A stretch of DNA of 64,000 bases from an uncultured bacterium (lineage in GTDB: Bacteria; Hydrothermota; Tepidihabitantia; Tepidihabitantales; DTDR01): NCBI GenBank assembly GCA_964505415.1, contig CAZDHW010000004.1, forward strand, positions 5,051 to 69,050, written 5' to 3'. A model generated the notes under the pieces. That model had not been told where the DNA came from. It searched no databases and worked only from the letters and a program-made list of their open reading frames with translations. Position numbers and translations under genes: made by a program. Of the stretch, positions 21,706 through 51,623 are shown in pieces (position 1 is the first letter of the stretch; the number at the start of each line of letters is the position of its first letter).

Positions 21706-21733
21706 TTGAATTTTTTGTAAAAAAGATTACAAT
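21706..21733 (+). promoter_or_regulatory. Candidate promoter of the thiolase-like/DUF35/HIT/gltX operon
   Basis: TTGAAT (21706-21711), 16-nt spacer, TACAAT (21728-21733). Unlike most operon starts here it is followed by a real leader with SD GGAGG (21746-21750) before ATG 21755. Confidence 0.4.
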
Positions 21734-21754
21734 AATAAGTTAAATGGAGGAATT

Positions 21755-22867
21755 ATGAAAAGAAGGGTTTGTATTGTGGGTATTGGGATGACTCCTTTAA
21801 AACCTTTATCGGAAGAAGTTTCTTACAAAGAGATGATGTTTGAAGCCGCGGTAAAGGCTTATGAAGATTGTGGAATAAATCCCCGAAAAGATGTTGACAC
21901 TTTTGTTTGCTGTTCGGAAGATTACATTGAAGGAACAAGCATTTTTGATGAATATGTTCCTGATCAAATCGGCGGCGCTTTAAAACAAGTTCACACAATC
22001 ACTTCTGACGGACTTTTTGGTGTTTGTGCCGCAATTTTACAGCTTTTAACCGAGGAATTTAAAGTCGCTGTTGTTGAAGCTCATGCAAAGGCTTCCAATA
22101 TTTTAACTCCGGAAGGCGTTCATATGTGTGCTTTGGATCCTATTTATACCCGACCACTTAATGTCAATCCAATTTTTATTGCTGGTTTAGAATATAATTC
22201 CTTTTTATTTAATTATCCTTTTACTCAAACTGATTGTGCGGAAGTGGTTGTGAAGAATAAAAAAAATGCTTTAAAAAATCCTTACGCTGCTTACGGGGCT
22301 AATTTATCGGTTGAAGATGTTTTGAACTCTTTTCCGGTTGCTTATCCGTTAACAGAATTAGAAGTTAGTCCTTATGCAGATGGAGCCTGCGTAATCGTTT
22401 TAGCAAGGGAAGAAGTTGCCAAAGATTTAAAGAAGAAACCTATTTATATAGATGGTTTTTCTTTTATCCAAGGTTCACCCAATTTGGAAGTTCGGTCTTG
22501 GGAGTATCCGCGGGCTACTGAAGAAGCTGCCAAAAGGGCTTATAAAATGGCAGGAATTTCTAATCCTAATAAGGAGATTGATTTTTGCGAAATTGATGAT
22601 ACCTATTCTTATAAAGAAATCCAAAATGCTTTGGCATTAAATTGTCAAGATATAATTATTAATCCTTCCGGCGGAAGTTTAGGAATGGGATATATCTATG
22701 AAGGAACTGGTTTGATGCGACTAATTATGGCGGTTTTGCAATTGCGGGGCGAAGCTGGTAGCTTTCAAATAAAAATAAATAACGAGTTACCCAAGAAAGC
22801 TTTGGTGCAATCTTGGCGTGGTCTGCCAACAGAAAATAGTTGTGTTTTAATTTTAAATAGAGAATAG
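21755..22867 (+). CDS. Thiolase-fold protein (SCP-x/archaeal-thiolase-like), canonical catalytic residues absent
   Basis: 370 aa. VCIVGIGMTP N-terminus and C-terminal NPSGGSLGMG...LQLRGEAG. The nucleophile block reads ITSDG, the HDCF block reads IDDTY, and the GHP block reads GYIYEGTG. Confidence 0.75.
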   Translation: MKRRVCIVGIGMTPLKPLSEEVSYKEMMFEAAVKAYEDCGINPRKDVDTFVCCSEDYIEGTSIFDEYVPDQIGGALKQVHTITSDGLFGVCAAILQLLTEEFKVAVVEAHAKASNILTPEGVHMCALDPIYTRPLNVNPIFIAGLEYNSFLFNYPFTQTDCAEVVVKNKKNALKNPYAAYGANLSVEDVLNSFPVAYPLTELEVSPYADGACVIVLAREEVAKDLKKKPIYIDGFSFIQGSPNLEVRSWEYPRATEEAAKRAYKMAGISNPNKEIDFCEIDDTYSYKEIQNALALNCQDIIINPSGGSLGMGYIYEGTGLMRLIMAVLQLRGEAGSFQIKINNELPKKALVQSWRGLPTENSCVLILNRE

Positions 22868-22876
22868 GGGGAAATT

Positions 22877-24037
22877 ATGGGAAGAAGAGTGGCTATTGTT
22901 GGTGCCGGTATGACAAAATTTGTGAGAAGAGCAAAAGAGACCGGTAAAGAGTTGGCTTTTTACGCCGCAAAGGCAGCTTTAGATTCGTGCGGAGCTAAAT
23001 TGAGAGATATTGATGCGGTAGTTTTAGGTAGTGCTCCTGATACTTTTGATGGTGTCCATATGAAAGGCGAATATCTTTCTTGTGGGGCCGGTGCTTTTGG
23101 GAAGCCTTATCTGCGATGTTATGTTGGTGGCGGTACCGGTGTTTTTGCCGTAGCTGTCGGTTGGTATTATATTGCCAGCGGAATATTTGATACCTGTTTA
23201 GTGGTTTGTGAAGAAAAAATGTCATCTTATCAACCCCATCCTCAAGGTGCTTTTTTAACTATTTTTGACCATACTACTGAAAGACCTTTGGGACCGAATC
23301 TTCTTTGGATTTTTGCTTTGGAGATGCAGCGTTACATGCAAACCTACGGAATAAAAAAAGAAGAGATTGCTTTGGTAGCCGTTAAGAATAAAAAAAATGC
23401 CTTAGACCATCCGGCTGCTCAAATTGCCGCAGAAATAACTGTGGAAGATGTATTAAATAGCGAAGTGCTTTGTTATCCGGTTCAAAGATTAGATGTTTCA
23501 CCAGTTTCTGACGGTGCCTGCGCGATTGTTATGACCAATGAATATTTGGCAAGAAGATTTACTGATAAGCCGGTATGGGTGAGCGGTGTTGGTTGGTGTT
23601 TGGATACTGCTTATTGGACAAATAGAGATTTGGCTTATCCTCGATATGTAGAAGAAGCTGCCCGAATGGCATATAAAATGGCGGGTATAAGAGATCCAAG
23701 AAGAGAGATTGATGTGGCTGAACCTTACGACCCATTTGATTATAAAGAACTACATCACCTGGAAGGTTTGATGTTATGTGGTCGCGGAGAGGCGCCTCAA
23801 TTATTAGTGGATGGAAAGACCCAAAGGGATGGCGAATTACCGGTTTGCCCTTCTGGTGGTTTATTAGGAGTTGGTAATCCAATTGCCGCTGCTGGTTTGA
23901 TGAAGGTGATTGAAATTTTCTGGCAACTAAGGGGTGAAGCGGATAAGAGGCAGATTGCCAAAAAAGCAAAAAGGGGAGTGGCCCAGGCTTGGGGTGATTT
24001 GATGCAGGTGGGCACCGTGGTTGTTTTAGAAATTTAA
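22877..24037 (+). CDS. Thiolase-fold protein paralog, canonical catalytic residues absent
   Basis: 386 aa. VAIVGAGMTKF; ...IASGIFDTCLVVCEEKMS; CPSGGLLGVGNPIAAAGLMKVIEIFWQLRGEA. The nucleophile block reads GGGTG, the HDCF block reads PYDPF, and the GHP block reads GNP. Confidence 0.75.
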   Translation: MGRRVAIVGAGMTKFVRRAKETGKELAFYAAKAALDSCGAKLRDIDAVVLGSAPDTFDGVHMKGEYLSCGAGAFGKPYLRCYVGGGTGVFAVAVGWYYIASGIFDTCLVVCEEKMSSYQPHPQGAFLTIFDHTTERPLGPNLLWIFALEMQRYMQTYGIKKEEIALVAVKNKKNALDHPAAQIAAEITVEDVLNSEVLCYPVQRLDVSPVSDGACAIVMTNEYLARRFTDKPVWVSGVGWCLDTAYWTNRDLAYPRYVEEAARMAYKMAGIRDPRREIDVAEPYDPFDYKELHHLEGLMLCGRGEAPQLLVDGKTQRDGELPVCPSGGLLGVGNPIAAAGLMKVIEIFWQLRGEADKRQIAKKAKRGVAQAWGDLMQVGTVVVLEI

Positions 24038-24049
24038 AAGGAGGAAAAG

Positions 24050-24544
24050 ATGAAGAATTTTTTTGCTACTCCTTTAAGTGAAGAGGATTTTAAAAAGAAA
24101 AATTTTTGTTTTGAAACCTGGATTGGTAATTGTTTTTATGCCTGGGATTGCGGAGTTGCGATTGGTAAATATTTAGAAGGATTAAAAAAAGGTAAGATAA
24201 TCGGTGTCAAATGTCCAAAATGTGAAAGAATAATGGTACCACCAAGAATCTTTTGCGAATGGTGTTTTGTTTTGATAGAAGATTTTGTTGAATTAAAGGA
24301 TACCGGAAGAATAAATACCTTTTCTATTTCTTATATTAGTTGGGATGTAAAAAAATTGGAAAAACCTCAGATTCCAGCAGTAATTGAGATTGATGGTGCT
24401 TCTCCCGGTTACGGAATTTTACATTTGATTTCCGAAGTCGACCCAAAGGAAGTGAAGATTGGTATGCGGGTAAAGGCTGTTTGGAAAGACGAAAAAGAAA
24501 GGGAAGGTAAAATTACCGATATAAAATATTTTAAACCTTATTAG
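24050..24544 (+). CDS. DUF35 protein (rubredoxin-like zinc ribbon + OB fold)
   Basis: 164 aa. CPKCERIMVPPRIFCEWC C4 ribbon followed by an OB-like region. SD AAGGAGG upstream. Confidence 0.8.
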   Translation: MKNFFATPLSEEDFKKKNFCFETWIGNCFYAWDCGVAIGKYLEGLKKGKIIGVKCPKCERIMVPPRIFCEWCFVLIEDFVELKDTGRINTFSISYISWDVKKLEKPQIPAVIEIDGASPGYGILHLISEVDPKEVKIGMRVKAVWKDEKEREGKITDIKYFKPY

Positions 24545-24553
24545 GAGGAAAAT

Positions 24554-25024
24554 ATGGAATTTAAAGTAAATAAAAAAAGAGAGATTAAACATCATTTAGG
24601 ACAATTGCCGGTGGAAAGTTTGTATACTGCGGGGATCGCTGGTGAAAAATTTCTTTTGGGTTTGAAGGAGGGTAAATTTTTAGCCAATTATTGTTCTGAT
24701 TGTGATTTTGTTTTTCTGCCACCAAAGCTTTATTGTGAATTTTGTTTTAAAGAAATTCCTGATGAGGATTGGCAAGAAGTGGAGAATAAGGGTATTTTGG
24801 TTTCTTATACTTTTGTTCATGTTGATAGCAATGGTAACAAATTAGAAAATCCGATTATTGTCGGCGCAATTAAAATGGCTGATACCGATACTACTTTTAT
24901 TCACAAACTTTTGGATAAAGTGGAAGATATTGAAATCGGAATGTTGGTAGAAGCCATTTTTGCTCCAAAAGAAAGAAGAAGAGGGAGCATTAACGATATT
25001 GTTGGTTTTAGAAAAGTTGAATAA
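24554..25024 (+). CDS. DUF35 protein, second paralog
   Basis: 156 aa. CSDCDFVFLPPKLYCEFC C4 ribbon. SD AGGAGG upstream. Confidence 0.8.
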   Translation: MEFKVNKKREIKHHLGQLPVESLYTAGIAGEKFLLGLKEGKFLANYCSDCDFVFLPPKLYCEFCFKEIPDEDWQEVENKGILVSYTFVHVDSNGNKLENPIIVGAIKMADTDTTFIHKLLDKVEDIEIGMLVEAIFAPKERRRGSINDIVGFRKVE

Positions 25025-25450
25025 ATGCTGAATTGCCCCTTTTGTCTGATTGCTGAAAAAAAAGAAAAAGCGTATATAGTTTACGAGGACGAAAAAAATA
25101 TTGCCTTTTTAGATATTTATCCGGTTACTATCGGTCATACTTTAGTTATTCCTAAAAAACATGTTGTGTTTCATACGGACTTGGCTCCCGAAGATGCCGG
25201 TCCTTTTTATCGAGCAGTTTATCTGGTAAGTCAGAAACTAAAAAATGTTTTTAAGCCGGAATACATTTCGCTGTTAATTCGGGGAACCAGAATTCCTCAT
25301 CTTCATTGTCATTTGATTCCTAAGATAAAAGAGAAAGATAATATTTTTGACAAGATTATGGATCTCCATCATTTCCTACAGGTAAGGTTAAAGACTGATT
25401 TAAAAGAAGAAGATTTTGTTAAAATTGCGAAGATGGTTAGTGAAAGTTAA
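25025..25450 (+). CDS. HIT-family (histidine triad) nucleotide hydrolase/transferase
   Basis: 141 aa. CPFC...ENIAFLDIYP...GHTLVIPKKH and histidine triad HLHCHLIP. Zero-nt junctions with both neighbours. Confidence 0.85.
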   Translation: MLNCPFCLIAEKKEKAYIVYEDEKNIAFLDIYPVTIGHTLVIPKKHVVFHTDLAPEDAGPFYRAVYLVSQKLKNVFKPEYISLLIRGTRIPHLHCHLIPKIKEKDNIFDKIMDLHHFLQVRLKTDLKEEDFVKIAKMVSES

Positions 25451-26890
25451 ATGGTAAGGGTAAGAATTGCTCCTTCACCGACTGGTGCTATTCATATTGG
25501 GTTAGCAAGAAGTGCTTTATATAATTTTCTTTTTGCTCGTCAGAATAACGGAAAGTTTATTTTGAGAATCGAGGATACTGACCCAAGCCGTTCAACAAAA
25601 GAATCAGTAGAAGCAATTTTAGAAGGTTTAAAATGGCTTTCTTTATATTGGGATGAGGGGCCTTATTTTCAATCGCAAAGGTTTTCCATTTATAAAGAAT
25701 ATGCAGAAATTTTACTAAAAAAAGGCAAGGCTTATTACTGCTATTGTTCGCAAGAAAGGTTAAAGGCAGAGAAGGAAAAGGCATTAAAAGAAAAAAGAAG
25801 TTGGCAATACGACCGCCATTGCTTATATTTAAGTGAAAAAGAAAAAGAAAAATTAGAAAGAGAAGGTGTTCCGAAAACAATAAGATTTCTTGTCCCCAGT
25901 GAAAGGAATGTTGTTTTTGAAGATATTATTCACGGAAGAATTGAGAAAAGTGGGCGGGATATTGAAGATTTTATTTTATTAAGAGCCGATGGCACACCAA
26001 CTTATAATTTTGCCTGTGTTGTCGATGATGCGCTTATGGAGATTACCCATGTTATTCGGGCAGTTGAACATATTTCTAATACTTTTAAACAAATTCTTTT
26101 ATACGAAGCACTTAATTTTAAAATACCCTATTTTGCTCATTTGCCTTTAATTTTGGGTAAGGATGGAAAAAAGTTATCAAAACGCCACGGAGCAGTTTCT
26201 ATTATGGAATATAAAAAGATGGGAATTTTACCAGAAGCCTTAGTAAATTACCTGGCTTTATTAGGCTGGTCACCGGGTGGCGATTTAGAAATCTTTAGTT
26301 TAGAGGAGGCGATAAAACTTTTTAAATTAGAAAAAGTAAAAAAATCAAACGCTATTTTTGATTTTCAAAAATTGGAATGGATGAACAGCGAATATATGAA
26401 AAGAAGTACTAATGAAAGATTGTTAATCGGAGTTAAACCATTTCTAATTGAAAGAAATCTCTCTCCGGATAAAGAAGATGAAAAGCGGCTTTTGGCAATA
26501 ATTGAAATAAACAAGGAAAGAAGCAGAAACCTTAATGAGTTAGCCGATAATATAGCAATTTATTTAAAAGAAGAGATAACTTACGATGAAGAAGGTGTAA
26601 AGAAATTTTTGGATGAGAAAGGCAAAGAAAATTTAAAGACACTTTTAAAGGTCTATGAAAATTTAACCGATTTTAATAAAGAAACTACTGAGAAAGTTCT
26701 TAGAGAATTGGCTAATAATCTTAATAAAAAGCCGGCCGAATTTATTCATCCTTTAAGAGTGGCCTTAACCGGAAAATTGGTTGGCCCCCCAATTTTTGAT
26801 GTGGTGAATGTTATGGGAAAAGAATTGGTAATAAAAAGAATTAAAAAAGCTTTAACCGTGGCTTTGGATAATTATTCCCAAAATAATTAA
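25451..26890 (+). CDS. gltX: Glutamyl-tRNA synthetase
   Basis: 479 aa. RIAPSPTGAIHIG (HIGH), RIEDTD, and KLSKRHG (KMSKS). Confidence 0.95.
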   Translation: MVRVRIAPSPTGAIHIGLARSALYNFLFARQNNGKFILRIEDTDPSRSTKESVEAILEGLKWLSLYWDEGPYFQSQRFSIYKEYAEILLKKGKAYYCYCSQERLKAEKEKALKEKRSWQYDRHCLYLSEKEKEKLEREGVPKTIRFLVPSERNVVFEDIIHGRIEKSGRDIEDFILLRADGTPTYNFACVVDDALMEITHVIRAVEHISNTFKQILLYEALNFKIPYFAHLPLILGKDGKKLSKRHGAVSIMEYKKMGILPEALVNYLALLGWSPGGDLEIFSLEEAIKLFKLEKVKKSNAIFDFQKLEWMNSEYMKRSTNERLLIGVKPFLIERNLSPDKEDEKRLLAIIEINKERSRNLNELADNIAIYLKEEITYDEEGVKKFLDEKGKENLKTLLKVYENLTDFNKETTEKVLRELANNLNKKPAEFIHPLRVALTGKLVGPPIFDVVNVMGKELVIKRIKKALTVALDNYSQNN

Positions 26891-27779: not shown

Positions 27780-30353
27780 ATGAAGTTTATAATTTTTTTA
27801 TTAATTTTTCAAGTTGGTGATAAAGATTTTAAAAAAATTTCTTACTTTTTTAAAACCCATCAGTTTGATTCCAGTATTTTTTATCTTAATCCTCTTTTAA
27901 AGAAAAATAGCCAAGATTCTTTTGGCTACCTTTATTTAGGAAAAAGTTATCTTTTTAAAAAAGATTATAAAAAAGCCAAAGAAATTTTTTTGGTGGCGAA
28001 GAATAAATTCTTAAGCTTTGATAGTCTTCATTATTATTATTTTTTCTCCGCCTTTAAAGAATGGGAGAAAGATACCATAAAGTTAAGAAATTTAAAAAAG
28101 GAAATTAATAATTTTGTGGATTCTCTTTTAAACAATGCCGATGAAAAAAGTCTTTCTTTGGCTTATCGGTTAATTGACTTTTTGGACACCAATTATCCTC
28201 AAAAAATCGTTGCGCTTATTTTAGAAAAATTTCCGGAAAGTAAAATTGGTTATCAAATTATTGGCAATATTTTTTACGATAGTCTTTATCCGATTTGGTA
28301 TAATGATACTTTAAAAATAGAATATTTAAAAAGATTTTTGGAAAAGTTTAAAACAACTGAATGGCGTTTTAATGCTTATCAATTTTTGCTGACTTCCCTT
28401 TATAATTTAAAAAATTACCAGGATCTCTTTTTCTTTACCGAAAAAATGGTAAAAGAAATGCCTAAAGATGTGCGGGCACTTAATTTTGTTGCTTCTTTGT
28501 ATTTAAGATGTGAGACGCTTTTTGCTAAAAGTTTAGAGTATTCTTTTTGGGCATTAAGTTCAATAAAAAATTTTAAGAAACCAAAAAATTTACCCGAAGA
28601 ACAATGGCAGCTTATTTTTCCTAAACTCTTACCCGATATCTTTTTCAATATCGCTCGTTCTTATTATTATCAAAAAAAATATCTTTTGGCTGAAAAATAT
28701 ATTAAAAAAGCATTAAAATTTGAGTTTGATGTGGATAATGATGCTACAAAAGCGCCTTATTATTATTATTCCGGCTTGATAAAAGAAAAAACGGGAAGAA
28801 TAAAAGCAGCAATAAAAGATTATGGTAAAACATTGATTATTGGTGATGTTAATAACTTTTATCCACCAAAAGCCGAAAGTGCTTTAAAAAGAATTTTTGG
28901 GGATACCATTGAGATTGTTTCGTATTTAAGAAAAATTTTTAAATATCGGGGTCCGATTTTTACTGATATTACCAAAGAAGTTGGTTTAGAAAAAGAAAAA
29001 GGTGGACGGGTTGCCTTTGGAGATTTTGATAATGATGGTTATGAAGATTTGTTACTGAATGGTAGTAGATTGTTTAAAAATGATAGTGGTCGTCGATTTT
29101 TGGATAAGACAAAAGAATCGGGTATTTATGGTAATAATAATGGTGGGCTCTTTGCTGATTTAAATAACGATGGTTATTTGGATATTGTTTGTCTTTCCAA
29201 TGAGAAAAAGGGAGAGAAGGTTTTTAAAAACAATGGCGACGGAACTTTTACTGATATGAGTGAAATAGCAAAAATTTATGATGATTATCCAAGCGAAGGT
29301 TTGGGGATGGGTGATATTGATAATGATGGACTTTTAGATATTTATATTGCTAATTATGAAATTTGGGAAGAACACAAATATCTACCTGATTTTTTGTATA
29401 AAAACTTGGGTGATTTTAAATTTGTTGATATTAGTGAAAAAGCAAAAATAAGAGAAGTTGAAAATAAAGCCGGTAGGGGAGTTAATTTTGGTAATTATAA
29501 CGATGACGATTATTTAGATATCTATGTTTCTAATTATCGGCTTTGTGAAAATTTTTTATGGCATAATAATGGTGACTTGACTTTTGAAAATAAAGCCCAT
29601 TATTTAGGAATAGCGGGTGAAGAACGGGAAGGCTATTATGGTCACACTATCGGTTCTGAATGGGGTGATTTTGATAATGACGGTGATTTGGATTTGATTA
29701 CGGCTAATCTGGCTCATCCCCGTTATATCCAATTTTCCAATCGGACGATGTTGTATAAAAATCAGGGAAAACCAAATTACCAATTTCTGGAGGTGCGAAG
29801 AAAGGCAAAAATAAAATATGAGGAAACCCATTCGGACCCGGCCTTTGGTGATGTGGATAATGATGGTGACTTGGATTTGTATCTTACTTCGGTTTATGAA
29901 AATCGTCGTTCTTTTCTCTATTTAAATAACGGGAAGGGAGTTTTTGAAGATGTTACCTATCTTGCTGGGGTACGGGTATTTAACGGTTGGGGATGCGCTT
30001 TTGCCGATTTTGATAATGATGGTGATTTAGATTTGATTGTTGGTTCGGGTTCAGGAGTAAGATTTTTCCGAAACGATACTAAAAATGGAAATAATTATTT
30101 AAAAGTGAAAATGATTGGTAAAAAATCTAATAGGAATGGAATCGGTGCCCGGGTTAAAATAAATATTGGTAAAAAAATTTTATTAAGAGAAGTCACCTGT
30201 GGCAAAGGAACAACCTCTCAATCATCCATTATTTTACATTTTGGGTTGGGAAAGAAAAAGAAAGTGAATTTAAATTACCACTTTCTTTCTAAAGAAGAAA
30301 AAACTTTAAAAAATATTAAAGCCAATCAATTGATAATAATTGAAGAAGAATAA
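27780..30353 (+). CDS. TPR-repeat + FG-GAP/VCBS-repeat + ASPIC/UnbV-domain protein (CRTAC1-like)
   Basis: 857 aa. The N-terminal half is TPR-like. It has at least 7 repeats of GDFDNDG(Y/D)LD(L/I) and a C-terminal NRNGIGARVKI...GKGTTSQSS..LHFGLG (UnbV_ASPIC). Confidence 0.8.
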   Translation: MKFIIFLLIFQVGDKDFKKISYFFKTHQFDSSIFYLNPLLKKNSQDSFGYLYLGKSYLFKKDYKKAKEIFLVAKNKFLSFDSLHYYYFFSAFKEWEKDTIKLRNLKKEINNFVDSLLNNADEKSLSLAYRLIDFLDTNYPQKIVALILEKFPESKIGYQIIGNIFYDSLYPIWYNDTLKIEYLKRFLEKFKTTEWRFNAYQFLLTSLYNLKNYQDLFFFTEKMVKEMPKDVRALNFVASLYLRCETLFAKSLEYSFWALSSIKNFKKPKNLPEEQWQLIFPKLLPDIFFNIARSYYYQKKYLLAEKYIKKALKFEFDVDNDATKAPYYYYSGLIKEKTGRIKAAIKDYGKTLIIGDVNNFYPPKAESALKRIFGDTIEIVSYLRKIFKYRGPIFTDITKEVGLEKEKGGRVAFGDFDNDGYEDLLLNGSRLFKNDSGRRFLDKTKESGIYGNNNGGLFADLNNDGYLDIVCLSNEKKGEKVFKNNGDGTFTDMSEIAKIYDDYPSEGLGMGDIDNDGLLDIYIANYEIWEEHKYLPDFLYKNLGDFKFVDISEKAKIREVENKAGRGVNFGNYNDDDYLDIYVSNYRLCENFLWHNNGDLTFENKAHYLGIAGEEREGYYGHTIGSEWGDFDNDGDLDLITANLAHPRYIQFSNRTMLYKNQGKPNYQFLEVRRKAKIKYEETHSDPAFGDVDNDGDLDLYLTSVYENRRSFLYLNNGKGVFEDVTYLAGVRVFNGWGCAFADFDNDGDLDLIVGSGSGVRFFRNDTKNGNNYLKVKMIGKKSNRNGIGARVKINIGKKILLREVTCGKGTTSQSSIILHFGLGKKKKVNLNYHFLSKEEKTLKNIKANQLIIIEEE

Positions 30354-39240: not shown

Positions 39241-39252
39241 TATATTTAGTAA

Positions 39253-39324
39253 GCCGGCATAGCTCAGTGGTAGAGCAGGGGTTTTGTAAACCTCAGGTCG
39301 GGGGTTCGAATCCCTCTGTCGGCT
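39253..39324 (+). tRNA. tRNA-Thr (anticodon TGT)
   Basis: GCCGGCA-TA-GCTC-AGTGGTA-GAGC-A-GGGGT-TTTGTAA-ACCTC-AGGTC-GGGGG-TTCGAAT-CCCTC-TGTCGGC-T. Confidence 0.9.
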
Positions 39325-39329
39325 TATGT

Positions 39330-39413
39330 GGGCAGGTACCCAAGTGGACAAAGGGGGCAGACTGTAAATCTGCTGGCGTGATGCCTTCGGAGGTTCGAAT
39401 CCTTCCCTGCCCA
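39330..39413 (+). tRNA. tRNA-Tyr (anticodon GTA), long variable arm
   Basis: GGGCAGG...GCAGA-CTGTAAA-TCTGC-(TGGCGTGATGCCTTC)-GGAGG-TTCGAAT-CCTTC-CCTGCCC-A. Confidence 0.9.
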
Positions 39414-39420
39414 CGTTATT

Positions 39421-39492
39421 GCGGGTGTAGCGCAACGGTAGCGCAACGGCCTTCCAAGCCGTTGGTTGCGGGTTCGAATCCCGTCACCCGCT
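39421..39492 (+). tRNA. tRNA-Gly (anticodon TCC)
   Basis: GCGGGTG-TA-GCGC-AACGGTA-GCGC-A-ACGGC-CTTCCAA-GCCGT-TGGTT-GCGGG-TTCGAAT-CCCGT-CACCCGC-T. Confidence 0.9.
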
Positions 39493-39498
39493 TAATTA

Positions 39499-39526
39499 TT
39501 GACTTTTTTAAAAAAATTAATATACT
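39499..39526 (+). promoter_or_regulatory. Internal promoter ahead of tRNA-Thr(GGT)-tuf
   Basis: TTGACT (39499-39504), 16-nt spacer, TATACT (39521-39526). The tRNA +1 at 39538 is 11 nt downstream. Confidence 0.45.
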
Positions 39527-39537
39527 TAAAATTTATT

Positions 39538-39610
39538 GCCCATGTAGCTCAGGCGGTAGAGCACACCCTTGGTAAGGGTGTGGTCGCCGGTTCGAGTCCG
39601 GCCATGGGCT
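39538..39610 (+). tRNA. tRNA-Thr (anticodon GGT)
   Basis: GCCCATG-TA-GCTC-AGGCGGTA-GAGC-A-CACCC-TTGGTAA-GGGTG-TGGTC-GCCGG-TTCGAGT-CCGGC-CATGGGC-T. Confidence 0.9.
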
Positions 39611-39663
39611 TGAAATTTTTAAAATTTTAGGTAAAATATAATTTAAAAAATGGAGGAAAAAAT

Positions 39664-40863
39664 ATGGCAAAACAAAAATTTGAAAGGAAAAAGCCACATG
39701 TAAATATTGGAACAATTGGTCATGTTGACCACGGGAAAACTACTTTGACGGCTGCAATTACGTTGGTTTTGGAAAAAAAAGGCTTAGCAAAATACACTCC
39801 TTATGATCAAATTGATAAAGCACCCGAGGAAAGAGCAAGAGGATTAACGATTCAGTTAGCTCACATTGAATACGAAACTGAAAAGAGACATTATGCTCAT
39901 ATTGATTGTCCGGGTCATGCTGACTACATCAAAAACATGATTACTGGTGCTGCCCAAATGGACGGAGCAATTTTAGTAGTTTCAGCTCCTGATGGACCAC
40001 AGCCGCAAACACGTGAGCATGTACTTTTAGCGCGACAAGTTAATGTACCAGCAATGGTAGTTTTTTTAAATAAAATTGATATGATGAGTGATCCTGAGTT
40101 AATTGAATTAGTTGAATTAGAAGTACGGGAAATTCTTTCTAAATATGAATATCCTGGCGATAAAGTTCCTTTCGTTAAAGGAAGCGCGTTAAAAATTCTG
40201 GAATGTGGTTGCGGTAAAGAAGATTGCCAGTGGTGTGGAGCTATTTGGCAACTTATGAAAGCAGTGGATGAATATATTCCTGAGCCGCTAAGAGAGTTAG
40301 ATAAACCTTTTTTGATGCCTGTGGAAGATGTTTTTTCAATTACTGGTAGAGGCACAGTAGTTACTGGTAAAGTAGAAAGAGGGAGAATCAAACCTGGTGA
40401 GGAAGTAGAGTTGATTGGTTTTGGTACCCATATAAAAACAGTAGCAGTGAGTATTGAAATGTTTCGAAAAGTTTTAGATGAAGGAGTAGCCGGTGATAAT
40501 ATTGGTATTCTTTTGAGGGGTGTTGAAAAAGATCAAGCAATGCGGGGAATGGTAGTAGCTGCTCCAGGTTCAATTAAACCTCATAAAAAATTTCAAGCGC
40601 AAGTTTACGTGCTAAAAAAAGAAGAAGGCGGAAGGCACACACCTTTCTTTAGTGGTTATCGACCGCAGTTTTATATTCGAACAACCGATGTTACCGGAAC
40701 GGTTAAATTACCCGAAGGAGTAGAAATGGTAATGCCTGGAGATAACGTAAATCTTGAAGTAGAATTGATAAGCGAGGTAGCCTTAGAAGAAGGTTCTCGT
40801 TTTGCTATTCGGGAAGGTGGTAAAACAGTTGGTGCCGGAGTAGTAACAAAAATTCTTGAATAA
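39664..40863 (+). CDS. tuf: Elongation factor Tu
   Basis: 399 aa. [29 protein letters not shown] upstream. Contains an unusual [11 protein letters not shown] segment (see findings). Confidence 0.98.
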
Positions 40864-40865
40864 AG

Positions 40866-41012
40866 ATGCGGGTTTTTATCCATTTGGCTTGTACTGAATG
40901 TAAAAGAAAAAATTATCAAACAACTAAAAATAAAAATAAACAAGAGAAATTAGAACTTAAAAAATATTGTAAGTTTTGTAAAAAACATACAATTCATAAA
41001 GAGACTAAATAG
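40866..41012 (+). CDS. rpmG: 50S ribosomal protein L33 (C4 zinc form)
   Basis: Not in the ORF track (48 aa). [48 protein letters not shown]. Sits in the tuf-rpmG-tRNA-Trp-secE position. Confidence 0.9.
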
Positions 41013-41083
41013 GCCAGTAGCTCGAACGGTAGAGCACCGGACTCCAAATCCGGGGGATGGGGGTTCAAATCCCTCCTGGCCTG
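41011..41083 (+). tRNA. tRNA-Trp (anticodon CCA)
   Basis: AGGCCAG-TA-GCTC-GAACGGTA-GAGC-A-CCGGA-CTCCAAA-TCCGG-GGGAT-GGGGG-TTCAAAT-CCCTC-CTGGCCT-G. The A1:U72 pair and G73 are typical of bacterial tRNA-Trp. Confidence 0.9.
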
Positions 41084-41094
41084 TGTTGTTTTAA

Positions 41095-43535: not shown

Positions 43536-43919
43536 ATGTCGTCAAAAATTGATGAATTAATTAATATCATTGAAAATTTAACAGTAATGGAACTTGCTGA
43601 ATTAGTTCAAAGACTGAAAGATAAATTTGGAATTACTCACACAGCTTTTGTAACCCCCGCAGTAAGCTCAGCGCAATCCACAACTGCTTCTGAGGTTAAG
43701 GAAGAAAAAACCGAATTTACCGTTACTTTAATCGCTGTAGGTGATAAAAAAATCCAAGTTCTAAAAGAATTACGGGCACTAACAAATTTAGGTTTAAAGG
43801 AAGCTAAAGATTTGATTGACAATGTCCCCAGCATTATTAAAGAAAAAGCTACAAAAGAAGAGGCTGAAAAAATAAAAGCGAAATTAGAAGAAGTAGGCGC
43901 TAAAGTTGAAATAAAATGA
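43536..43919 (+). CDS. rplL: 50S ribosomal protein L7/L12
   Basis: 127 aa. ...LTVMELAELV..LKDKFG...KIQVLKELRALTNLGLKEAKDLID..P. SD AAGGAGG upstream. Confidence 0.97.
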   Translation: MSSKIDELINIIENLTVMELAELVQRLKDKFGITHTAFVTPAVSSAQSTTASEVKEEKTEFTVTLIAVGDKKIQVLKELRALTNLGLKEAKDLIDNVPSIIKEKATKEEAEKIKAKLEEVGAKVEIK

Positions 43920-46900
43920 AAAAAAGAGATTTTACCAAATATAAACATTCGTGGGAAATTCCGCCTTTACTTTCTATTCAACTGGAATCTTTTCGTTCTT
44001 TCTTTCAATTTGAAAAACCTCCTGAGGAGCGAGAAGAGATTGGTTTGCAAAAAATTTTTAAAGAAATTTTCCCAATAGTTGATACCCATAAACGTTTTAT
44101 TTTGGATTTTGTAAAATATGAAATAAAAGAACCGCGATACTCTCCGGAAGAAGCTTTATTAAAAGGATTAAGTTACGATGCTCCTTTTTATGTAACTTTT
44201 CGCTTTATTAAAGGAGAGCCCGGTAAGGAAAAAGAAGAATTTAAGATTAAGGAAATAATTGAGCAAGATATTTATCTTTTTAATTTGCCATTAATGACCA
44301 AAGATGGCACTTTTATTATTAATGGTAACGAGCGAGTAGTGGTTAATCAATTACACCGTGCTCCTGGTGTTTATCTTATAAGAGAAAAAAGCGATCATTC
44401 TTTGTTGTTGGTACCTTTGAGAGGAGCTTGGTTTGAAATGCTTATCTCTCGAGATAATGATTTTTCAGTGTTACTGGATCGAAAAAGAAAAATACCTTTA
44501 TTTATTTTTCTTCAAGCCTTAGGATATTCACCAGAAGCAGCATTAGAAAAAATTTATCCCGATATGATTATAGAAAAAGAAATAGAAGTAGGAGATATGA
44601 TTGCTCAGCAGACTAATTTGGAAGCCATTTTTATTGGTGAAATAATAACTGAAGGCATTTTGGAATTTTTGCAAAAACAAGGACAGACACGATTGAAATG
44701 TTTAAAAAAAGATGCTCCAGGAATAAAAGTTATCCATAATGTGCTTAAATCACATCCCTTTGTGGATGAAAATGAAGCTCTAAAAAAGATTTATAAAAAG
44801 CTTCGCGGTATTGAACCTACCCAATTATTGACAGCAAGGAATGTCATTGAAGGAGCTTTGTTTGATATTACTCGATTTGATTTAGGAAAATGTGGTCGTT
44901 TCCGGCTCAATCAGATTTTTAATGAAAATATTCCTTTAGAAAAAACAAATTTTGAGAAGGAAGAACTTTTTAAATTAATTCGACGACTTTTAGAATTTTA
45001 TGAACGACTAATTCCACCCGATGATACAGAACATCTATCAGCTAGGAGAGTTCGATCGGTGGGCGAACTTCTAGAACCATATTTTCGGAATTCCCTCATA
45101 GCATTTACTAATCAAGTAAAAGAAAAAATTTTACAACTTGGTGTTAGCAAAATCACTTCTTTAAGAGAATTAATCCAAGGAAAGCCGATAGAAGGAATGG
45201 TATTAAAGTTTTTTACTCAACATCCTTTGTGCCAATATATGGAACAAGTGAATCCTTTATCTTCTTTAATTCATAAAAGAAGAGTTTCAGCTTTAGGACC
45301 CGGAGGTTTAACAAAAGAAACGGCTGGATTTGAAGTCCGAGATGTTCATTATTCTCATTACGGGAGAATCTGTCCAATAGAAACTCCCGAAGGTGCGAAT
45401 ATTGGGTTAATAAATACTATTGCTACTTATAGTAAAATTAATGAATTTGGTTTTATTACTACTCCTTATTGGCGGGTAAAAAATGGAATAGTAACAAAAG
45501 AAATAGTTTACTTAGCTCCTTATGAAGAAGAAGGGTATAAAATTGCTCAATTTACTACTCGTTTAGATGAAGAAAGAAGAATTATTGATAAAGAAGTAGT
45601 GGTGAGATACCGTGGCGACGTTATTACAGTTTCGCGAGAAGAAGTTGATTTTATGGATGTCTCCCCTAAACAACTTTTTTCTCCTTCTACAGTGATGATT
45701 CCTTTTTTGGAGCATAATGATGCTGACCGGGCTTTAATGGGAGCAAATATGCAACGTCAGGCAGTACCGCTATTAAAACCGGAAAAACCCTTAGTAGCCA
45801 CTGGAGTGGAAGAACAGTGGGCAAGAGAATCTGGGGCAGTAGTTATTGCTGAAGAGGATGGAGAAGTAATTAAAGTAGATGCCGAACGAATATTGGTGAA
45901 AACTGTTACTGGTTTAAAAGAATATCGACTTAAAAAATTTAAAAAAACCAATCAATATACCTGTTATAATCAAATCCCTAAGGTTAAAAAAGGAATGAAA
46001 ATAAAAAAAGGAGATTTATTAGCGGATGGTCCTTGTACGGATGATGGTCAATTGGCTTTAGGAAGGAATATTTTAGTAGCCTTTTTGCCTTGGCGCGGTT
46101 ATAATTATGAGGATGCTATTGTAATTTCTGAAAATCTTTTAAAAGAAGATGTGTTCACTTCTATTCAGATATTGGAATTTGAAATACAAGCACGGGAAAC
46201 AAAATTAGGACCGGAAGAAATTACTCGTGATATTCCAGGAGTAACGGAAGAAGATTTAGCTCACTTAGATAAATTTGGAATCGTTCGAATAGGTACGGAA
46301 GTTGGTCCTGGAGATATTTTAGTAGGAAGAATTACTCCCCGAGGAGAAACTGAATTTATGCCCGAAGAAAAATTATTGAGAGCAATTTTTGGTGAAAAAG
46401 CAGCAAATGTTCGGGATACCTCTTTAAGAGTAGAACCCGGAGTTTATGGAACAGTTATTGATGTACAGATTTTTTCTCGGAGGACGGACGATCCTTTAGC
46501 AAAAGAAGTATTTAGAATAAGAGAAGAAGAACTGGAAAAAAGATTTGCTGAGAAAAAAAATTTCCTTATTCAAGAAAAAAATGAAAAATTAAAAAACATT
46601 TTATTAAACGTAGTTGCATCTAAAAATATTAAAGACAAAAAAAATAAAATAATTTTAAAAGAAGGTGAAAAAATTACAGAAGAATTATTTAACTCTGGCA
46701 AAATAGATAAAATTAAAACCGAGGATTTAATCGGGTTGATAAAAAACGAAGAAAAGAAAAAAGAAATTCAAAAAATACTTGAGGAATTTGAGGTAGGATT
46801 AAAATTAATTGAAGTTGAAAGAAAAAAAGAACAGGAAAAATTAAAAGTTGGCGATGAACTTCCGAGTGGAGTACTTAAATGGGTACGGGTTTATATAGCT

Positions 46901-47620
46901 CAAAAACGAAAGATTAGCGTAGGTGATAAATTAGCGGGACGGCATGGAAATAAAGGAGTGATCAGTAAAATTTTACCTGTAGAAGATATGCCTTATTTAC
47001 CGGATGGCACACCAGTAGATATGGTGTTAAATCCTTTAGGAGTTCCATCGCGAATGAATATTGGGCAGATTTTAGAAACAGCTTTGGGCTGGGCAATGAA
47101 AGTACAGGGATGTCAAGCGATAACGCCTATATTTGAAGGAGCAACAATAAAGGAAATAAAAGAAGAATTAAAAAAAGCCGGTTTGCCTGAAGATGGTAAG
47201 ATTACTTTATATGACGGAAGGACAGGACTTCCGTTTAAAGAAAAAGTGGTTGTGGGGTACATTTACATGATGAAATTAATTCATATGGTGGACGATAAAA
47301 TTCATGCCCGATCCGTTGGACGGTATTCTTTAATTACCCAACAACCATTGGGGGGAAAAGCTCAGTTTGGTGGCCAAAGATTTGGCGAGATGGAAGTTTG
47401 GGCCTTAGAAGCTTATGGTGCTGCTTATACTTTACAAGAAATGCTTACTATAAAATCTGATGATGTAGAAGGAAGAACAGAACTTTTTGAATCTTTAATA
47501 AAAGGAACTAATCCACCCACTCCTAAAATTCCTGCCTCTTTTTCAGTATTAGTTAAAGAATTAAGAGGTCTTTGTTTAGATTTGGTACCAATTAATTTAG
47601 AGCGGAGGAAAAATGAGTGA
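43916..47620 (+). CDS. rpoB: DNA-directed RNA polymerase subunit beta
   Basis: 1234 aa. ...RRVSALGPGGL, FLEHNDADRALMGANMQRQAVP, GRHGNKGV, GGQRFGEMEVWALEAYGAAY. Confidence 0.99.
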   Translation: MKKRDFTKYKHSWEIPPLLSIQLESFRSFFQFEKPPEEREEIGLQKIFKEIFPIVDTHKRFILDFVKYEIKEPRYSPEEALLKGLSYDAPFYVTFRFIKGEPGKEKEEFKIKEIIEQDIYLFNLPLMTKDGTFIINGNERVVVNQLHRAPGVYLIREKSDHSLLLVPLRGAWFEMLISRDNDFSVLLDRKRKIPLFIFLQALGYSPEAALEKIYPDMIIEKEIEVGDMIAQQTNLEAIFIGEIITEGILEFLQKQGQTRLKCLKKDAPGIKVIHNVLKSHPFVDENEALKKIYKKLRGIEPTQLLTARNVIEGALFDITRFDLGKCGRFRLNQIFNENIPLEKTNFEKEELFKLIRRLLEFYERLIPPDDTEHLSARRVRSVGELLEPYFRNSLIAFTNQVKEKILQLGVSKITSLRELIQGKPIEGMVLKFFTQHPLCQYMEQVNPLSSLIHKRRVSALGPGGLTKETAGFEVRDVHYSHYGRICPIETPEGANIGLINTIATYSKINEFGFITTPYWRVKNGIVTKEIVYLAPYEEEGYKIAQFTTRLDEERRIIDKEVVVRYRGDVITVSREEVDFMDVSPKQLFSPSTVMIPFLEHNDADRALMGANMQRQAVPLLKPEKPLVATGVEEQWARESGAVVIAEEDGEVIKVDAERILVKTVTGLKEYRLKKFKKTNQYTCYNQIPKVKKGMKIKKGDLLADGPCTDDGQLALGRNILVAFLPWRGYNYEDAIVISENLLKEDVFTSIQILEFEIQARETKLGPEEITRDIPGVTEEDLAHLDKFGIVRIGTEVGPGDILVGRITPRGETEFMPEEKLLRAIFGEKAANVRDTSLRVEPGVYGTVIDVQIFSRRTDDPLAKEVFRIREEELEKRFAEKKNFLIQEKNEKLKNILLNVVASKNIKDKKNKIILKEGEKITEELFNSGKIDKIKTEDLIGLIKNEEKKKEIQKILEEFEVGLKLIEVERKKEQEKLKVGDELPSGVLKWVRVYIAQKRKISVGDKLAGRHGNKGVISKILPVEDMPYLPDGTPVDMVLNPLGVPSRMNIGQILETALGWAMKVQGCQAITPIFEGATIKEIKEELKKAGLPEDGKITLYDGRTGLPFKEKVVVGYIYMMKLIHMVDDKIHARSVGRYSLITQQPLGGKAQFGGQRFGEMEVWALEAYGAAYTLQEMLTIKSDDVEGRTELFESLIKGTNPPTPKIPASFSVLVKELRGLCLDLVPINLERRKNE

Positions 47621-50600: not shown

Positions 50601-51623
50601 AAAAAAAGTGGAAAAGTGAGATATTGTGATATTGAATTGGGAAAAACTCTTCAAGAAGATATCGATGAAAGGGTAGGGAGAAAAGAAAAAAGAGTTATTG
50701 AGGATCGGGAAAGAATGCGACATCCCAGATTAGAAATTTTAGATGAAACTGGAAAAGTTCTGGAAGTTAAGGAATTACCTAATGACGCATATTTAGTAGT
50801 TGAAGATGGTCAATTAGTAAGACCCGGAGATGTGCTAGCCCGGTTAGTTAAAGAAGTTGTTAGAGCAAAAGATATTACTGGCGGGTTACCGAAAGTGGCA
50901 GAGCTATTTGAGGCCAAGCGGGTGAAAGATCCAGCGGTAATAAGTGATATTGATGGTCGAGTAGAGGTTTCCCCACCTCATATGGGCATGAGAATTGTTA
51001 AAGTTGTGGCTGAAGATGGTAAAACTGAAAGAATTTACAAAATTCCGTACGGTAAATATTTATTAGTTAAAACTGGTGATATGGTGAAAGCAGGTGACAA
51101 ACTATGTGAAGGAGAGGTTGATCCCCACGATGTATTGAGAGTAAAAGGTTGGATGGCAGTCCAAGAGTTTTTAACTAATCGCATTCAAGAAGTTTATCGG
51201 TTACAAAATGTAAAAATAAATGATAAACATATTTCCATTATTGTGCGTCAAATGTTAAAAAAGGTAAAGATAGAAGACCCGGGCGATAGCAATTTTATGG
51301 AAGGTCAAATTGTGGATGCTCAAAAGGTTGATTTAGAAAATCAGCGTTTAACTGCTGAGCATAAACGACCAGCGAGATATACTAGAATTATTTTAGGAAT
51401 TACAAGGGCAGCTTTGCTGACCGAAAGTTGGCTTTCAGCTGCATCTTTTCAGGAGACTACCCGGGTACTTTCAGAAGCGGCTATCGAAGGTAGAATTGAT
51501 TATTTAAAGGGATTAAAAGAAAATGTAATTGTTGGTAGATTAATTCCTGCCGGTACTGGTTTTCGTGAATTTAAAAAAGTAAAAGTAGTAACAAAAGCAG
51601 AAGAAATTAAGGAGGTAGGTTAA
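47613..51623 (+). CDS. rpoC: DNA-directed RNA polymerase subunit beta-prime
   Basis: 1336 aa. Zinc motif CNCGKYKK...CDRCGVEV and catalytic NADFDGD. Overlaps rpoB by 8 nt. Confidence 0.99.

Follow-up and report, generated by a model that had tools for sequence, protein, structure and literature searches.

A widespread four-gene cassette of cysteine-less thiolase-fold and DUF35 proteins that may encode a heteromeric acyl-CoA lyase

Here, we describe a four-gene cassette, T1-T2-D1-D2, located at positions 21755-25024 of a 64,000-nucleotide stretch of contig CAZDHW010000004.1 from an uncultured bacterium of candidate division WOR-3 (hereafter the window, with positions counted from its first letter). 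The cassette encodes two thiolase-fold paralogues (T1 and T2), neither of which carries the nucleophilic cysteine of thiolases, and two DUF35 proteins (D1 and D2). On a tentative reading drawn from sequence and from analogy with known enzymes, to which we give somewhat less than an even chance, the four products would form a heteromeric retro-aldol-type C-C lyase whose substrate is a small, possibly branched acyl-CoA, with T2 as the catalytic subunit and T1, D1 and D2 in structural roles. So far, a shift from Claisen to retro-aldol chemistry in thiolase-fold proteins is known solely from the aerobic degradation of steroid side chains (Ltp2, Sal and Atf1, and on genetic grounds Ltp3-Ltp4), and the cassette displays similar active-site remodelling in a four-subunit form, with far wider spread and under exceptional constraint. 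Its best-supported placement is among the thiolase-fold/DUF35 lyases, which would make it not a categorically new system but one that is new in its breadth, its conservation and its four-subunit form. In the source annotations T2 is automatically labelled acetyl-CoA C-acetyltransferase, and because of this routine label metabolic reconstructions probably credit the host lineages with an impossible thiolase. If the lyase reading is true, the cassette represents a new step in the short- and branched-chain acyl-CoA metabolism of subsurface anaerobes, tied to isobutyryl-CoA mutase (ICM) and acyl-CoA dehydrogenase (ACAD).

The four genes, T1 (21755-22867, 370 aa), T2 (22877-24037, 386 aa), D1 (24050-24544, 164 aa) and D2 (24554-25024, 156 aa), all lie on the plus strand and are separated by spacers of 9, 12 and 9 nt. 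D1 and D2 each carry a zinc ribbon of the form C-x2-C-x10-C-x2-C (CPKC...CEWC at 24212-24265 and CSDC...CEFC at 24692-24745, respectively) followed by an OB fold, and both match the Pfam domains zf-ChsH2 and OB_ChsH2_C, while T2 matches Thiolase_N and Thiolase_C_1 and T1 matches Thiolase_C_1 alone. The open reading frames, their coordinates, the short spacers and the intact four-cysteine ribbons are all as an initial annotation, made from the sequence alone, had them, and its assignment of T1 and T2 to the SCP-x/archaeal-thiolase fold with DUF35 partners agrees with Pfam, phmmer and structure prediction. T2 aligns to the archaeal thiolase 7yvy with an E-value of 1.5e-46, and the AlphaFold model of T1 (pLDDT 85.5, pTM 0.89) superimposes on the archaeal thiolase 6et9_C, from the complex of thiolase, hydroxymethylglutaryl-CoA synthase (HMGCS) and DUF35 protein, with a TM-score of 0.91; the top structural matches of this model are mostly DUF35-partnered thiolase-fold proteins. 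In NCBIfam, T2 passes the cutoff of PRK06065 (672 bits, cutoff 455), whereas the best match of T1, PRK06066, stays under its cutoff (400.6 bits, cutoff 516). Both families are named merely 'thiolase domain-containing protein'.

The catalytic positions were mapped by phmmer alignment to the solved thiolases 7yvy (P. furiosus), 4yzo (ST0096), 6esq (the M. thermolithotrophicus thiolase) and 7pxp (BbsB), and residue conservation was counted across 62 orthologues each of T1 and T2. At the position of the nucleophilic cysteine, T2 has Gly85 (23129-23131, inside VGGGTG at 23123-23140) and T1 has Thr83 (ITSDG, 21998-22012); the His of the H-D-x-F motif is replaced by Tyr284 in T2 (YDPF, 23726-23737) and by Asp281 in T1 (IDDTY, 22592-22606), and the His of G-H-P by Asn334 (GNP, 23873-23881) and Tyr313 (in GYIYEGTG, 22688-22711), respectively. 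The Cys position of H-D-C-F is occupied in T2 by Pro286. For both window copies these are the positions that the initial annotation had picked out by eye, and the cysteines that it named as able to overturn the mapping, those of LRCYV (Cys81) and VCAA, do not align to the nucleophile position, where no Cys was found in any of the 62 orthologue pairs.

Taken as a feature of the family, the substitutions hold for T2 but not for T1. In T2, Gly84-Gly85, Tyr284-Asp-Pro-Phe and Gly-Asn334-Pro are invariant (62/62), as are Arg18 and five histidines (61, 121, 178, 293 and 294), one of which, His178, stands where all other thiolase-fold classes near-universally have Asn; Cys324, in the CPSGG motif (23846-23860), is kept in 59 of the 62. 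In T1, by contrast, position 83 is T, P, A, S or G, though never Cys, position 281 is D, C or S, and at position 313 most orthologues (38/62) retain the His, with Tyr in no more than 5/62. The suggestion that the tyrosine substitutions recall the mechanism of Ltp2 thus survives for Tyr284 of T2, which stands at the base-Tyr position; the tyrosines of GYIYEG and IDDTY in T1 are lineage-specific and therefore carry no mechanistic weight.

What T1 does conserve lies elsewhere. An acidic loop (E55-D56..E59..D65-E66-Y67..D70-Q71, 21917-21973) is invariant in 62/62 orthologues at all eight named residues and is the sole low-confidence stretch of the T1 model, and an Asp or Glu at position 85, in the former nucleophile loop, is conserved among the orthologues. 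Together with the invariant histidines and Arg18 of T2, this loop might form a metal site or else a charged interface. Further, the window T1 and its closest relative (P0122) are without a hairpin of 18 residues that is present in T2 and in other T1 proteins, the deletion falling after T1 residue 297 (22645-22660), just ahead of the NPSGG strand. The window T1 is about 60% identical to other T1 proteins of candidate division WOR-3, as against 82-83% for T2, and is by alignment a divergent PRK06066 member with an 18-residue deletion.

In Ltp2, Tyr294 of a Y-D-H-F motif acts as general base and Tyr344 as acid, and Sal uses Tyr302 and Cys304 of a Y-D-C-Y motif, carries Gln352 in place of Tyr344 and has Gly instead of the nucleophilic Cys of SCP2-thiolases, while the corresponding motif of TbSLP reads Y-D-C-F (PMC12329534). 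The Cys of these Y-D-C-[YF] motifs is the catalytic Cys of the thiolase motif (PMC12329534), so that the Tyr falls on the thiolase His position, which is where T2 has Tyr284. The equivalence of Tyr284 with Ltp2 Tyr294 and Sal Tyr302 follows, by transitivity, from this published motif mapping and from alignment offsets: the T2/Ltp2 alignment spans residues 5-341 and 8-351, respectively, and the resulting offset of +10 at its C-terminal limit puts Tyr284 on Tyr294 and Asn334 on Tyr344. In all three proteins the second site follows the Tyr at a distance of 50 residues (Ltp2 294-344, Sal 302-352, T2 284-334), and the amide Asn334 of T2 stands where Sal has Gln. T2 thus combines a Tyr in Y-D-x-[FY] with the lack of a nucleophilic Cys, as the retro-aldolases do, and T1 does not. 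Aldolase-type chemistry is suggested for T2 because its Gly85 and Tyr284 match this hallmark of Ltp2 and Sal.

The same signature occurs in a broader set of proteins. In a library clustered at 50% identity, full-length relatives of T2 are found at 60% identity or more, followed by a sharp fall to 43% or less. Of the full-length representatives in the range of 30-64% identity (94 in all), 23 have the canonical thiolase set (Cys/His/[Cys,Ala]/His) and 19 have the exact T2-class signature (Gly/Tyr/Pro or Ala/Asn), near variants of which also occur. When the representatives were re-aligned together with the window T1 and T2 and three actinobacterial proteins, 23 T2-class (Gly/Tyr/x/Asn) and 37 T1-class sequences were recognised; at the nucleophile site the latter are one residue shorter and have an x-D-G loop, and they further have acidic or D-G-R-T-I-S loops. 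The two classes share derived characters that are absent from canonical thiolases, namely Gly59, Lys76, Trp234, an inserted Pro274 and Arg343 (Lys in the window T2), which suggests that they diversified together. These Cys-less T1-like and T2-like classes amount to a large, essentially unstudied radiation of the thiolase superfamily. A further type, distinct from both by its motifs, is PDB 4yzo (ST0096, Sulfolobus tokodaii), which has Ser at the nucleophile position (N-T-S-G-S-G) and retains both His motifs.

For orthologues in cultured hosts, a plasmid search gave none above 38% identity. On a Rhodococcus plasmid, genes are arranged as in the igr operon: after two ACADs come a split MaoC hydratase, a T1-like remnant, a T2-class protein (TGGATG/YAPF/ANP), which takes the place of Ltp2, and a DUF35 protein, and the series continues with genes for a CoA-transferase, a short-chain dehydrogenase/reductase and a ligase. 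On a Tsukamurella replicon, a tandem-DUF35 protein (309 aa), a T1-class protein of PRK07937 (593 bits) and a T2-class protein of PRK08313 (734 bits; AGSVG/YVPF/SNP) adjoin genes for an AMP-ligase, a crotonase, an F420 oxidoreductase and a P450, and this locus is syntenic with M. tuberculosis fadD19, echA19, cyp142, Rv3520c, Rv3521, ltp4 (Rv3522) and ltp3 (Rv3523). Ltp3-Ltp4 is reported to be essential for the degradation of C24-branched sterol side chains and has been called a heteromeric aldol-lyase (citing Wilbrink et al. 2012), a role based on genetics. Like the cassette, Rv3521-Ltp4-Ltp3 has adjacent T2-class and shorter, degenerate T1-class paralogues, no nucleophilic Cys and two DUF35 domains. 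By gene content, therefore, the 2+2 architecture, which the initial annotation could not map onto any described pathway, has a described counterpart, and PRK06065 and PRK06066 had already been catalogued. The two systems are not the same: T2 scores 265 bits on PRK08313 (cutoff 514) and T1 117 bits on PRK07937 (cutoff 419), at about 36% identity; the cassette has two separate DUF35 genes after the thiolase genes, whereas the Rv3521 type has one tandem-fused gene before them; and, unlike for Ltp3-Ltp4, no steroid genes were seen in the flanks of the cassette, whose hosts are anaerobes and archaea. An aldol-lyase reading of the cassette is suggested because the T2-class signature occurs in Ltp3-type proteins and in the Rhodococcus protein at the Ltp2 position.

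Other thiolase-fold/DUF35 systems share parts of this architecture. Characterised pairs are alpha2-beta2 complexes in which the DUF35 protein shapes the substrate cleft or recruits further enzymes. Ltp2-ChsH2 and Sal-Shy (PDB 6ok1, 9myr) resemble the cassette in their SCP2-thiolase fold, in a DUF35 partner, which in the cassette is putative, in the missing nucleophile and in a Tyr at the base position, but Ltp2 and Sal are homodimers whose single DUF35 domain is fused to a MaoC hydratase, and the cassette has no linked hydratase. T1 finds its best structural match, and T2 some of its best sequence matches, in the archaeal thiolase/DUF35 complexes. These likewise have a stand-alone DUF35 subunit, but their thiolases are homodimeric, keep Cys/His/His and recruit HMGCS or a reductase and a dehydratase. 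In BbsAB, PhlABC and MucABC a thiolase-fold subunit is also paired with a DUF35 zinc-ribbon subunit, and PhlABC and MucABC further contain two different thiolase-superfamily subunits; BbsB, PhlC and MucC nevertheless keep the catalytic Cys, and PhlA and MucA are similar to ketoacyl synthase III and HMGCS rather than SCP2-type paralogues. Heterodimers of the KS/CLF (ketosynthase/chain-length factor) and PqsBC types keep the catalytic Cys in one subunit, whereas T1/T2 keep it in neither. The closest solved relative of both D1 (E 2e-16) and D2 (6e-17) is SSO2064 (PDB 3irb), a stand-alone DUF35 protein of Sulfolobus solfataricus, well ahead of the DUF35 subunits of characterised complexes. A literature search covering thiolase/DUF35 pairs, Cys-less thiolases, WOR-3, COG1545 and ICM in syntrophs returned no description of the cassette.

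The initial annotation had tied the cassette to a compact, AT-rich genome, but a scan with one genome per species confirmed it in at least 588 species genomes. The nearest relatives of T2 are from WOR-3 (95-98% identity), and the hosts, mostly uncultured anaerobes, additionally include Chloroflexota, Actinomycetota, Deltaproteobacteria, Krumholzibacteriota, UBP1, a Symbiobacterium metagenome-assembled genome, Bathyarchaeia and Methanofastidiosia, with T2 identities of 71-83%. As far as contig ends allow, the order T1-T2-D1-D2 on one strand is kept in 85/85 loci, which answers the question, raised with the initial annotation, of whether the set is conserved in related genomes, and two DUF35 genes always stand beside T1/T2 in the loci examined. 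In these loci, identity to the window proteins is 72-83% for T2, about 50-66% for D1, 44-57% for T1 and 34-50% for D2, and across the 27 loci with all four genes the mean pairwise distance is 0.24 for T2, 0.44 for D1, 0.45 for T1 and 0.57 for D2, so that D1 is the better conserved DUF35 subunit and D2 the least conserved of the four. Between the paralogues T1 and T2 identity is 34%, and T1 evolves at about twice the rate of T2, with 23% of its positions conserved at 95% or more, compared to 48% in T2. In the same 27 loci the pairwise distances of the four proteins correlate in all six pairs (r 0.72-0.84), which indicates that the four genes were inherited as a unit, and the two highest correlations, T2-D1 and T1-D2, give a weak hint as to who binds whom. 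For 46-48 of the 62 sequences the nearest neighbour belongs to the same phylum, and identity between archaea and bacteria equals that between bacterial phyla (0.54 and 0.54 for T1, 0.73 and 0.75 for T2), from which it follows that the cassette has crossed domains and that T2 has been held near constant since.

An exhaustive search of representatives additionally recovered a natural T2-D1-D2 fusion of 731 aa, whose 90% cluster has 27 members on many contigs; at the fusion locus a T1-like gene ends 2 nt upstream of the fusion gene. In one such fusion (P0242, locus L088, 2585-4780) the D2-derived ribbon is down to two of its four cysteines (WCDELEAVLIPPSSFCENG), and in the Tsukamurella tandem-DUF35 protein the first copy has no ribbon cysteines. 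Judging by these sequences, tethering of the domains seems to make one ribbon of the two unnecessary.

The pattern of conservation bears on whether the cassette encodes an enzyme at all. A non-enzymatic complex, such as a pseudoenzyme scaffold or a sensor or carrier of acyl-CoA through which other enzymes are recruited or regulated, would account for the loss of the canonical catalytic residues from both paralogues, for the documented role of DUF35 proteins as scaffolds for reductase and dehydratase partners, and for genomic contexts that are varied and often housekeeping. We consider it improbable, since the substituted active-site positions of T2 are invariant across domains and T2 ranks with the most constrained proteins of these loci (mean pairwise distance 0.24, against 0.44-0.57 for its partners), which is a pattern typical of a working active site, and since its signature also occurs in a class for which there is genetic evidence of aldol-lyase function.

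Some Anaerolineae cassettes contain extra open reading frames at the T1/T2 or T2/D1 junction (L019 5221-5917, L028 1902-2800, L033 7162-8001, L042 5373-5921, L044 4940-5657 and L075 4781-5878), with the cassette genes intact. These are toxin-antitoxin-type insertions (PIN, HEPN with nucleotidyltransferase, DUF6036 and PD-(D/E)XK), and the extra frames were ruled out as components of the cassette, being PIN, HEPN/nucleotidyltransferase and PD-(D/E)XK genes.

The neighbourhood was surveyed in 83 loci, with flanks of about 6 kb, and among these no universal neighbour of the cassette was found. The divergent plsY-gpsA context that the initial annotation described is correct for the window but limited to its lineage, just as fabD-fabG-nusB-tatAC synteny is limited to Anaerolineae, and, such synteny being lineage-specific, adjacency to plsY-gpsA or fabD-fabG was dropped as an indication of lipid synthesis. 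Genes of acyl-CoA metabolism recur more broadly. A short-chain ACAD flanks the cassette in 16-17 loci (Chloroflexota, Deltaproteobacteria, Actinomycetota and an unclassified bacterium); seven loci, three of them archaeal, carry an ICM-type B12 mutase, its B12 subunit or MeaB, including six (three archaeal) with the large subunit of a B12 acyl-CoA mutase and three with MeaB, although in L046, one of the latter, the stretch retrieved contains no mutase; a CitE/HpcH-type lyase adjoins the cassette in two loci; and a phosphate acyltransferase lies near it in one. In a tight deltaproteobacterial operon (L014), a TetR/FadR-like regulator, an ACAD, a cob(I)alamin adenosyltransferase, the mutase large subunit and its B12 subunit precede T1, T2, D1 and D2, which are followed by MeaB. 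These parts are those of the isobutyryl-CoA mutase cluster of Syntrophothermus lipocalidus.

The type of this mutase was read from an alignment to solved 2-hydroxyisobutyryl-CoA mutase (HCM) and methylmalonyl-CoA mutase (MCM). Its specificity positions read RQF/SVAF/IAQ, compared to RQI/STDF/MAQ in HCM and RQY/SVAF/MVR in MCM, and as they differ from both the enzyme is neither; its motifs fit an isobutyryl/butyryl-CoA type, Phe and Gln at these positions being what we take to be the mark of ICM. HCM, which would have supplied a beta-hydroxyacyl-CoA directly, was ruled out as the linked mutase because its Ile90 and Asp117 are here Phe and Ala.

This mutase also bears on a reading of the cassette as an acyl-CoA decarboxylase of a KSQ/CLF-like or TbSLP-like kind, in which a Tyr/Asn oxyanion hole would act on a malonyl-type or beta-keto-acyl-CoA substrate. 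The Asn at the G-H-P position of T2, with a polar residue at the H-D-C-F position, resembles the His/Asn pair of decarboxylating condensing enzymes, and the place of the L014 cassette next to a mutase and MeaB recalls sbm-ygfD-ygfG of E. coli. The linked mutase, however, has Phe, Ala and Gln and is without the carboxylate-binding Tyr and Arg of MCM, so that its product would have no removable carboxyl. TbSLP, with its Y-D-C-F motif, does decarboxylate malonyl-CoA, but slowly, at just 0.005 per second, and Sal has no such activity (PMC12329534). In our view the decarboxylase reading is very improbable.

The same operons are also where a thiolase would be expected, as ACAD, ICM mutase and phosphate butyryltransferase in L014, L001 and L071 illustrate, and most flanks show no other thiolase. 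A non-canonical thiolase or condensing enzyme, in which CoA attacks directly in a ternary complex or a relocated Cys (Cys324 or Cys111 of T2) takes over, would fill the thiolase step of butyryl- or isobutyryl-CoA oxidation or synthesis. True archaeal thiolases are the closest sequences to T2, Cys324 is kept in nearly all of its orthologues, and the sources annotate it as acetyl-CoA C-acetyltransferase. Yet those annotations are automatic, Gly84-Gly85 is invariant and all four thiolase catalytic residues are substituted, 13/62 orthologues have Ala for Cys111, and conservation of Cys324 does not extend to the wider T2-class. Moreover, we know of no thiolase-superfamily Claisen catalyst that lacks a Cys, and a thiolase of this kind appears unlikely to us.

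Beside the cassette in Bathyarchaeia and a related archaeon (L016 3092-4647, L017 3134-4637 and L055 3101-4641) lies a second thiolase and DUF35 pair, on the opposite strand and just upstream, whose thiolase is 33-34% identical to T2, so that both types stand side by side.

On the favoured lyase reading, the quaternary structure, the catalytic subunit, the reaction type and the substrate are what we infer from gene content, substitutions, conservation, co-inheritance, the fusion and the genomic associations. The four proteins would form one obligate heteromeric complex, as suggested by the fixed gene order, the correlated distances, the T2-D1-D2 fusion and the alpha2-beta2 precedents. By analogy with the latter, T1 and T2 would make up a central pseudo-symmetric thiolase-fold heterodimer and D1 and D2 the flanking 'staple' proteins, D1 probably docking on T2 and D2 on T1, such that two diverged paralogues would stand in for each homodimer of the alpha2-beta2 complexes. 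T2 alone would have a functional active site, because its active-site positions are invariant while their T1 equivalents vary and the window T1 has lost the hairpin; T1 would be structural or regulatory, with its acidic loop touching T2, a DUF35 subunit or the substrate. With Gly at the nucleophile position T2 would form no acyl-enzyme, and its thioester-enolate machinery would be kept in the form used by the thiolase-fold retro-aldolases. Tyr284, in the Y-D-P-F loop, would act as general base on the beta-hydroxyl, the hydroxyl or oxyanion would be held by the backbone of Gly85 together with the amide of Asn334, and the acyl-CoA enolate would be protonated by a residue particular to the family, for example Cys324, or by an invariant histidine. 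The reaction would be the reversible splitting of a small beta-hydroxyacyl-CoA into a carbonyl compound and acetyl- or propionyl-CoA, and its role would lie in short- and branched-chain acyl-CoA metabolism of the butyryl/isobutyryl-CoA type in anaerobes, an acyl-CoA substrate being suggested because ACAD, ICM-type mutase/MeaB and CitE-type lyase recur beside the cassette.

Several observations weigh against this proposal. The second catalytic residue of the retro-aldolases has no counterpart in T2, which has Asn334 for Tyr344 of Ltp2 and Pro286 for Cys304 of Sal or the His of Ltp2; with Pro at the latter site the proton donor, if any, must lie elsewhere. The best E-values of T2 are to archaeal thiolases (1e-46), well ahead of Ltp2 (3e-23) and Sal (8e-20), and the Tyr and Gly common to T2, Ltp2 and Sal could be convergent. 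The features that mark the T2 family, namely the five invariant histidines including His178 (Asn elsewhere), Arg18 and Cys324, are missing from the Ltp3-like class, so that the chemistry of T2 may differ from that of its nearest functional precedent. The AlphaFold model of T2, built from a 10-sequence alignment, reached a pLDDT of 38 and was set aside. Most loci have uninformative neighbours in housekeeping contexts, and a crotonase or MaoC homologue was found within about 6 kb of the cassette in none of the surveyed loci (0/83), unlike in the Ltp2, Sal and Rhodococcus systems; in the retro-aldolases a MaoC-type enoyl-CoA hydratase provides the beta-hydroxyacyl-CoA.

The lack of a separate hydratase, though ACAD is often linked, would instead be expected if the cassette catalysed another nucleophile-free enolate reaction, such as hydration/dehydration, double-bond isomerisation or epimerisation, perhaps with T1 hydrating and T2 cleaving. 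The acidic residues of the invariant T1 loop (E55, D56, E59, D65, E66 and D70), together with Asp/Glu85, would suit acid-base hydration. To our knowledge, no thiolase-fold hydratase or isomerase has been described; the other pocket positions of T1 vary, the window lineage lacks the hairpin, and the loop, which is predicted to be disordered in isolation, is equally consistent with an interface. We regard such a reaction as rather unlikely. A bolder form of the lyase proposal, with a similarly slim chance, is that the cassette encodes a self-sufficient central-metabolic enzyme of anaerobes, with the T1 loop as hydratase and T2 as lyase, which would split or build short or branched 3-hydroxyacyl-CoAs and even enoyl-CoAs. 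Its products would be an aldehyde or ketone and acetyl-CoA, as in the conversion of 3-hydroxybutyryl-CoA to acetaldehyde and acetyl-CoA or of 3-hydroxyisovaleryl-CoA to acetone and acetyl-CoA, giving a thiolase- and dehydrogenase-independent shunt of beta-oxidation or of butyrate/isobutyrate metabolism. If true, such a role could explain why T2 remains so strongly conserved, at 71-83% identity, across domains.

In the window, the 91-nt intergenic region between the divergent plsY and T1 holds a promoter-like site found by consensus scan (TTGAAT-16 nt-TACAAT, 21706-21733, plus strand) and a ribosome-binding site ahead of T1 (GGAGGA, 21747-21752, plus strand), and 21706-21752 is a plausible start of the transcription unit; the promoter-like count in this region, like the counts of the promoter and terminator scan as a whole, was not above chance. 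Downstream, a gene for a HIT-family hydrolase (25025-25450, plus strand) abuts D2 with a 0-nt gap, and gltX (25451-26890, plus strand) begins directly at the stop codon of the HIT-family gene, again with a 0-nt gap. No terminator was found between D2, the HIT-family gene and gltX, and both genes are probably co-transcribed with the cassette in the window lineage, while lying outside the conserved module. In another locus (L011) a HIT-family gene likewise lies about 700 nt downstream of the cassette.

The GC content at third codon positions (GC3) of the cassette is 0.25-0.32, compared to 0.20-0.29 in neighbouring genes of the window. The GC excess of T2 sits in codon positions 1 and 2, with GC3 near the host range, which points to amino-acid constraint and not to foreign origin. 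A foreign origin or a mobile island was ruled out for the cassette, as its GC3 is host-like and its surroundings consist of core genes (tuf, rpoBC). At 39252-41084 and 43916-51623 the window contains a tRNA cluster (Thr-Tyr-Gly-Thr), a 399-aa tuf-like open reading frame, a tRNA-Trp and open reading frames of 1234 and 1336 aa; the last two look like rpoB and rpoC in a core-chromosome arrangement, as judged by their size and the tRNAs only. Finally, at 27780-30353 the window encodes an 857-aa protein whose translation, judged by eye, combines TPR-like N-terminal repeats, FG-GAP/VCBP-type repeats and an ASPIC/UnbV-like C-terminus.

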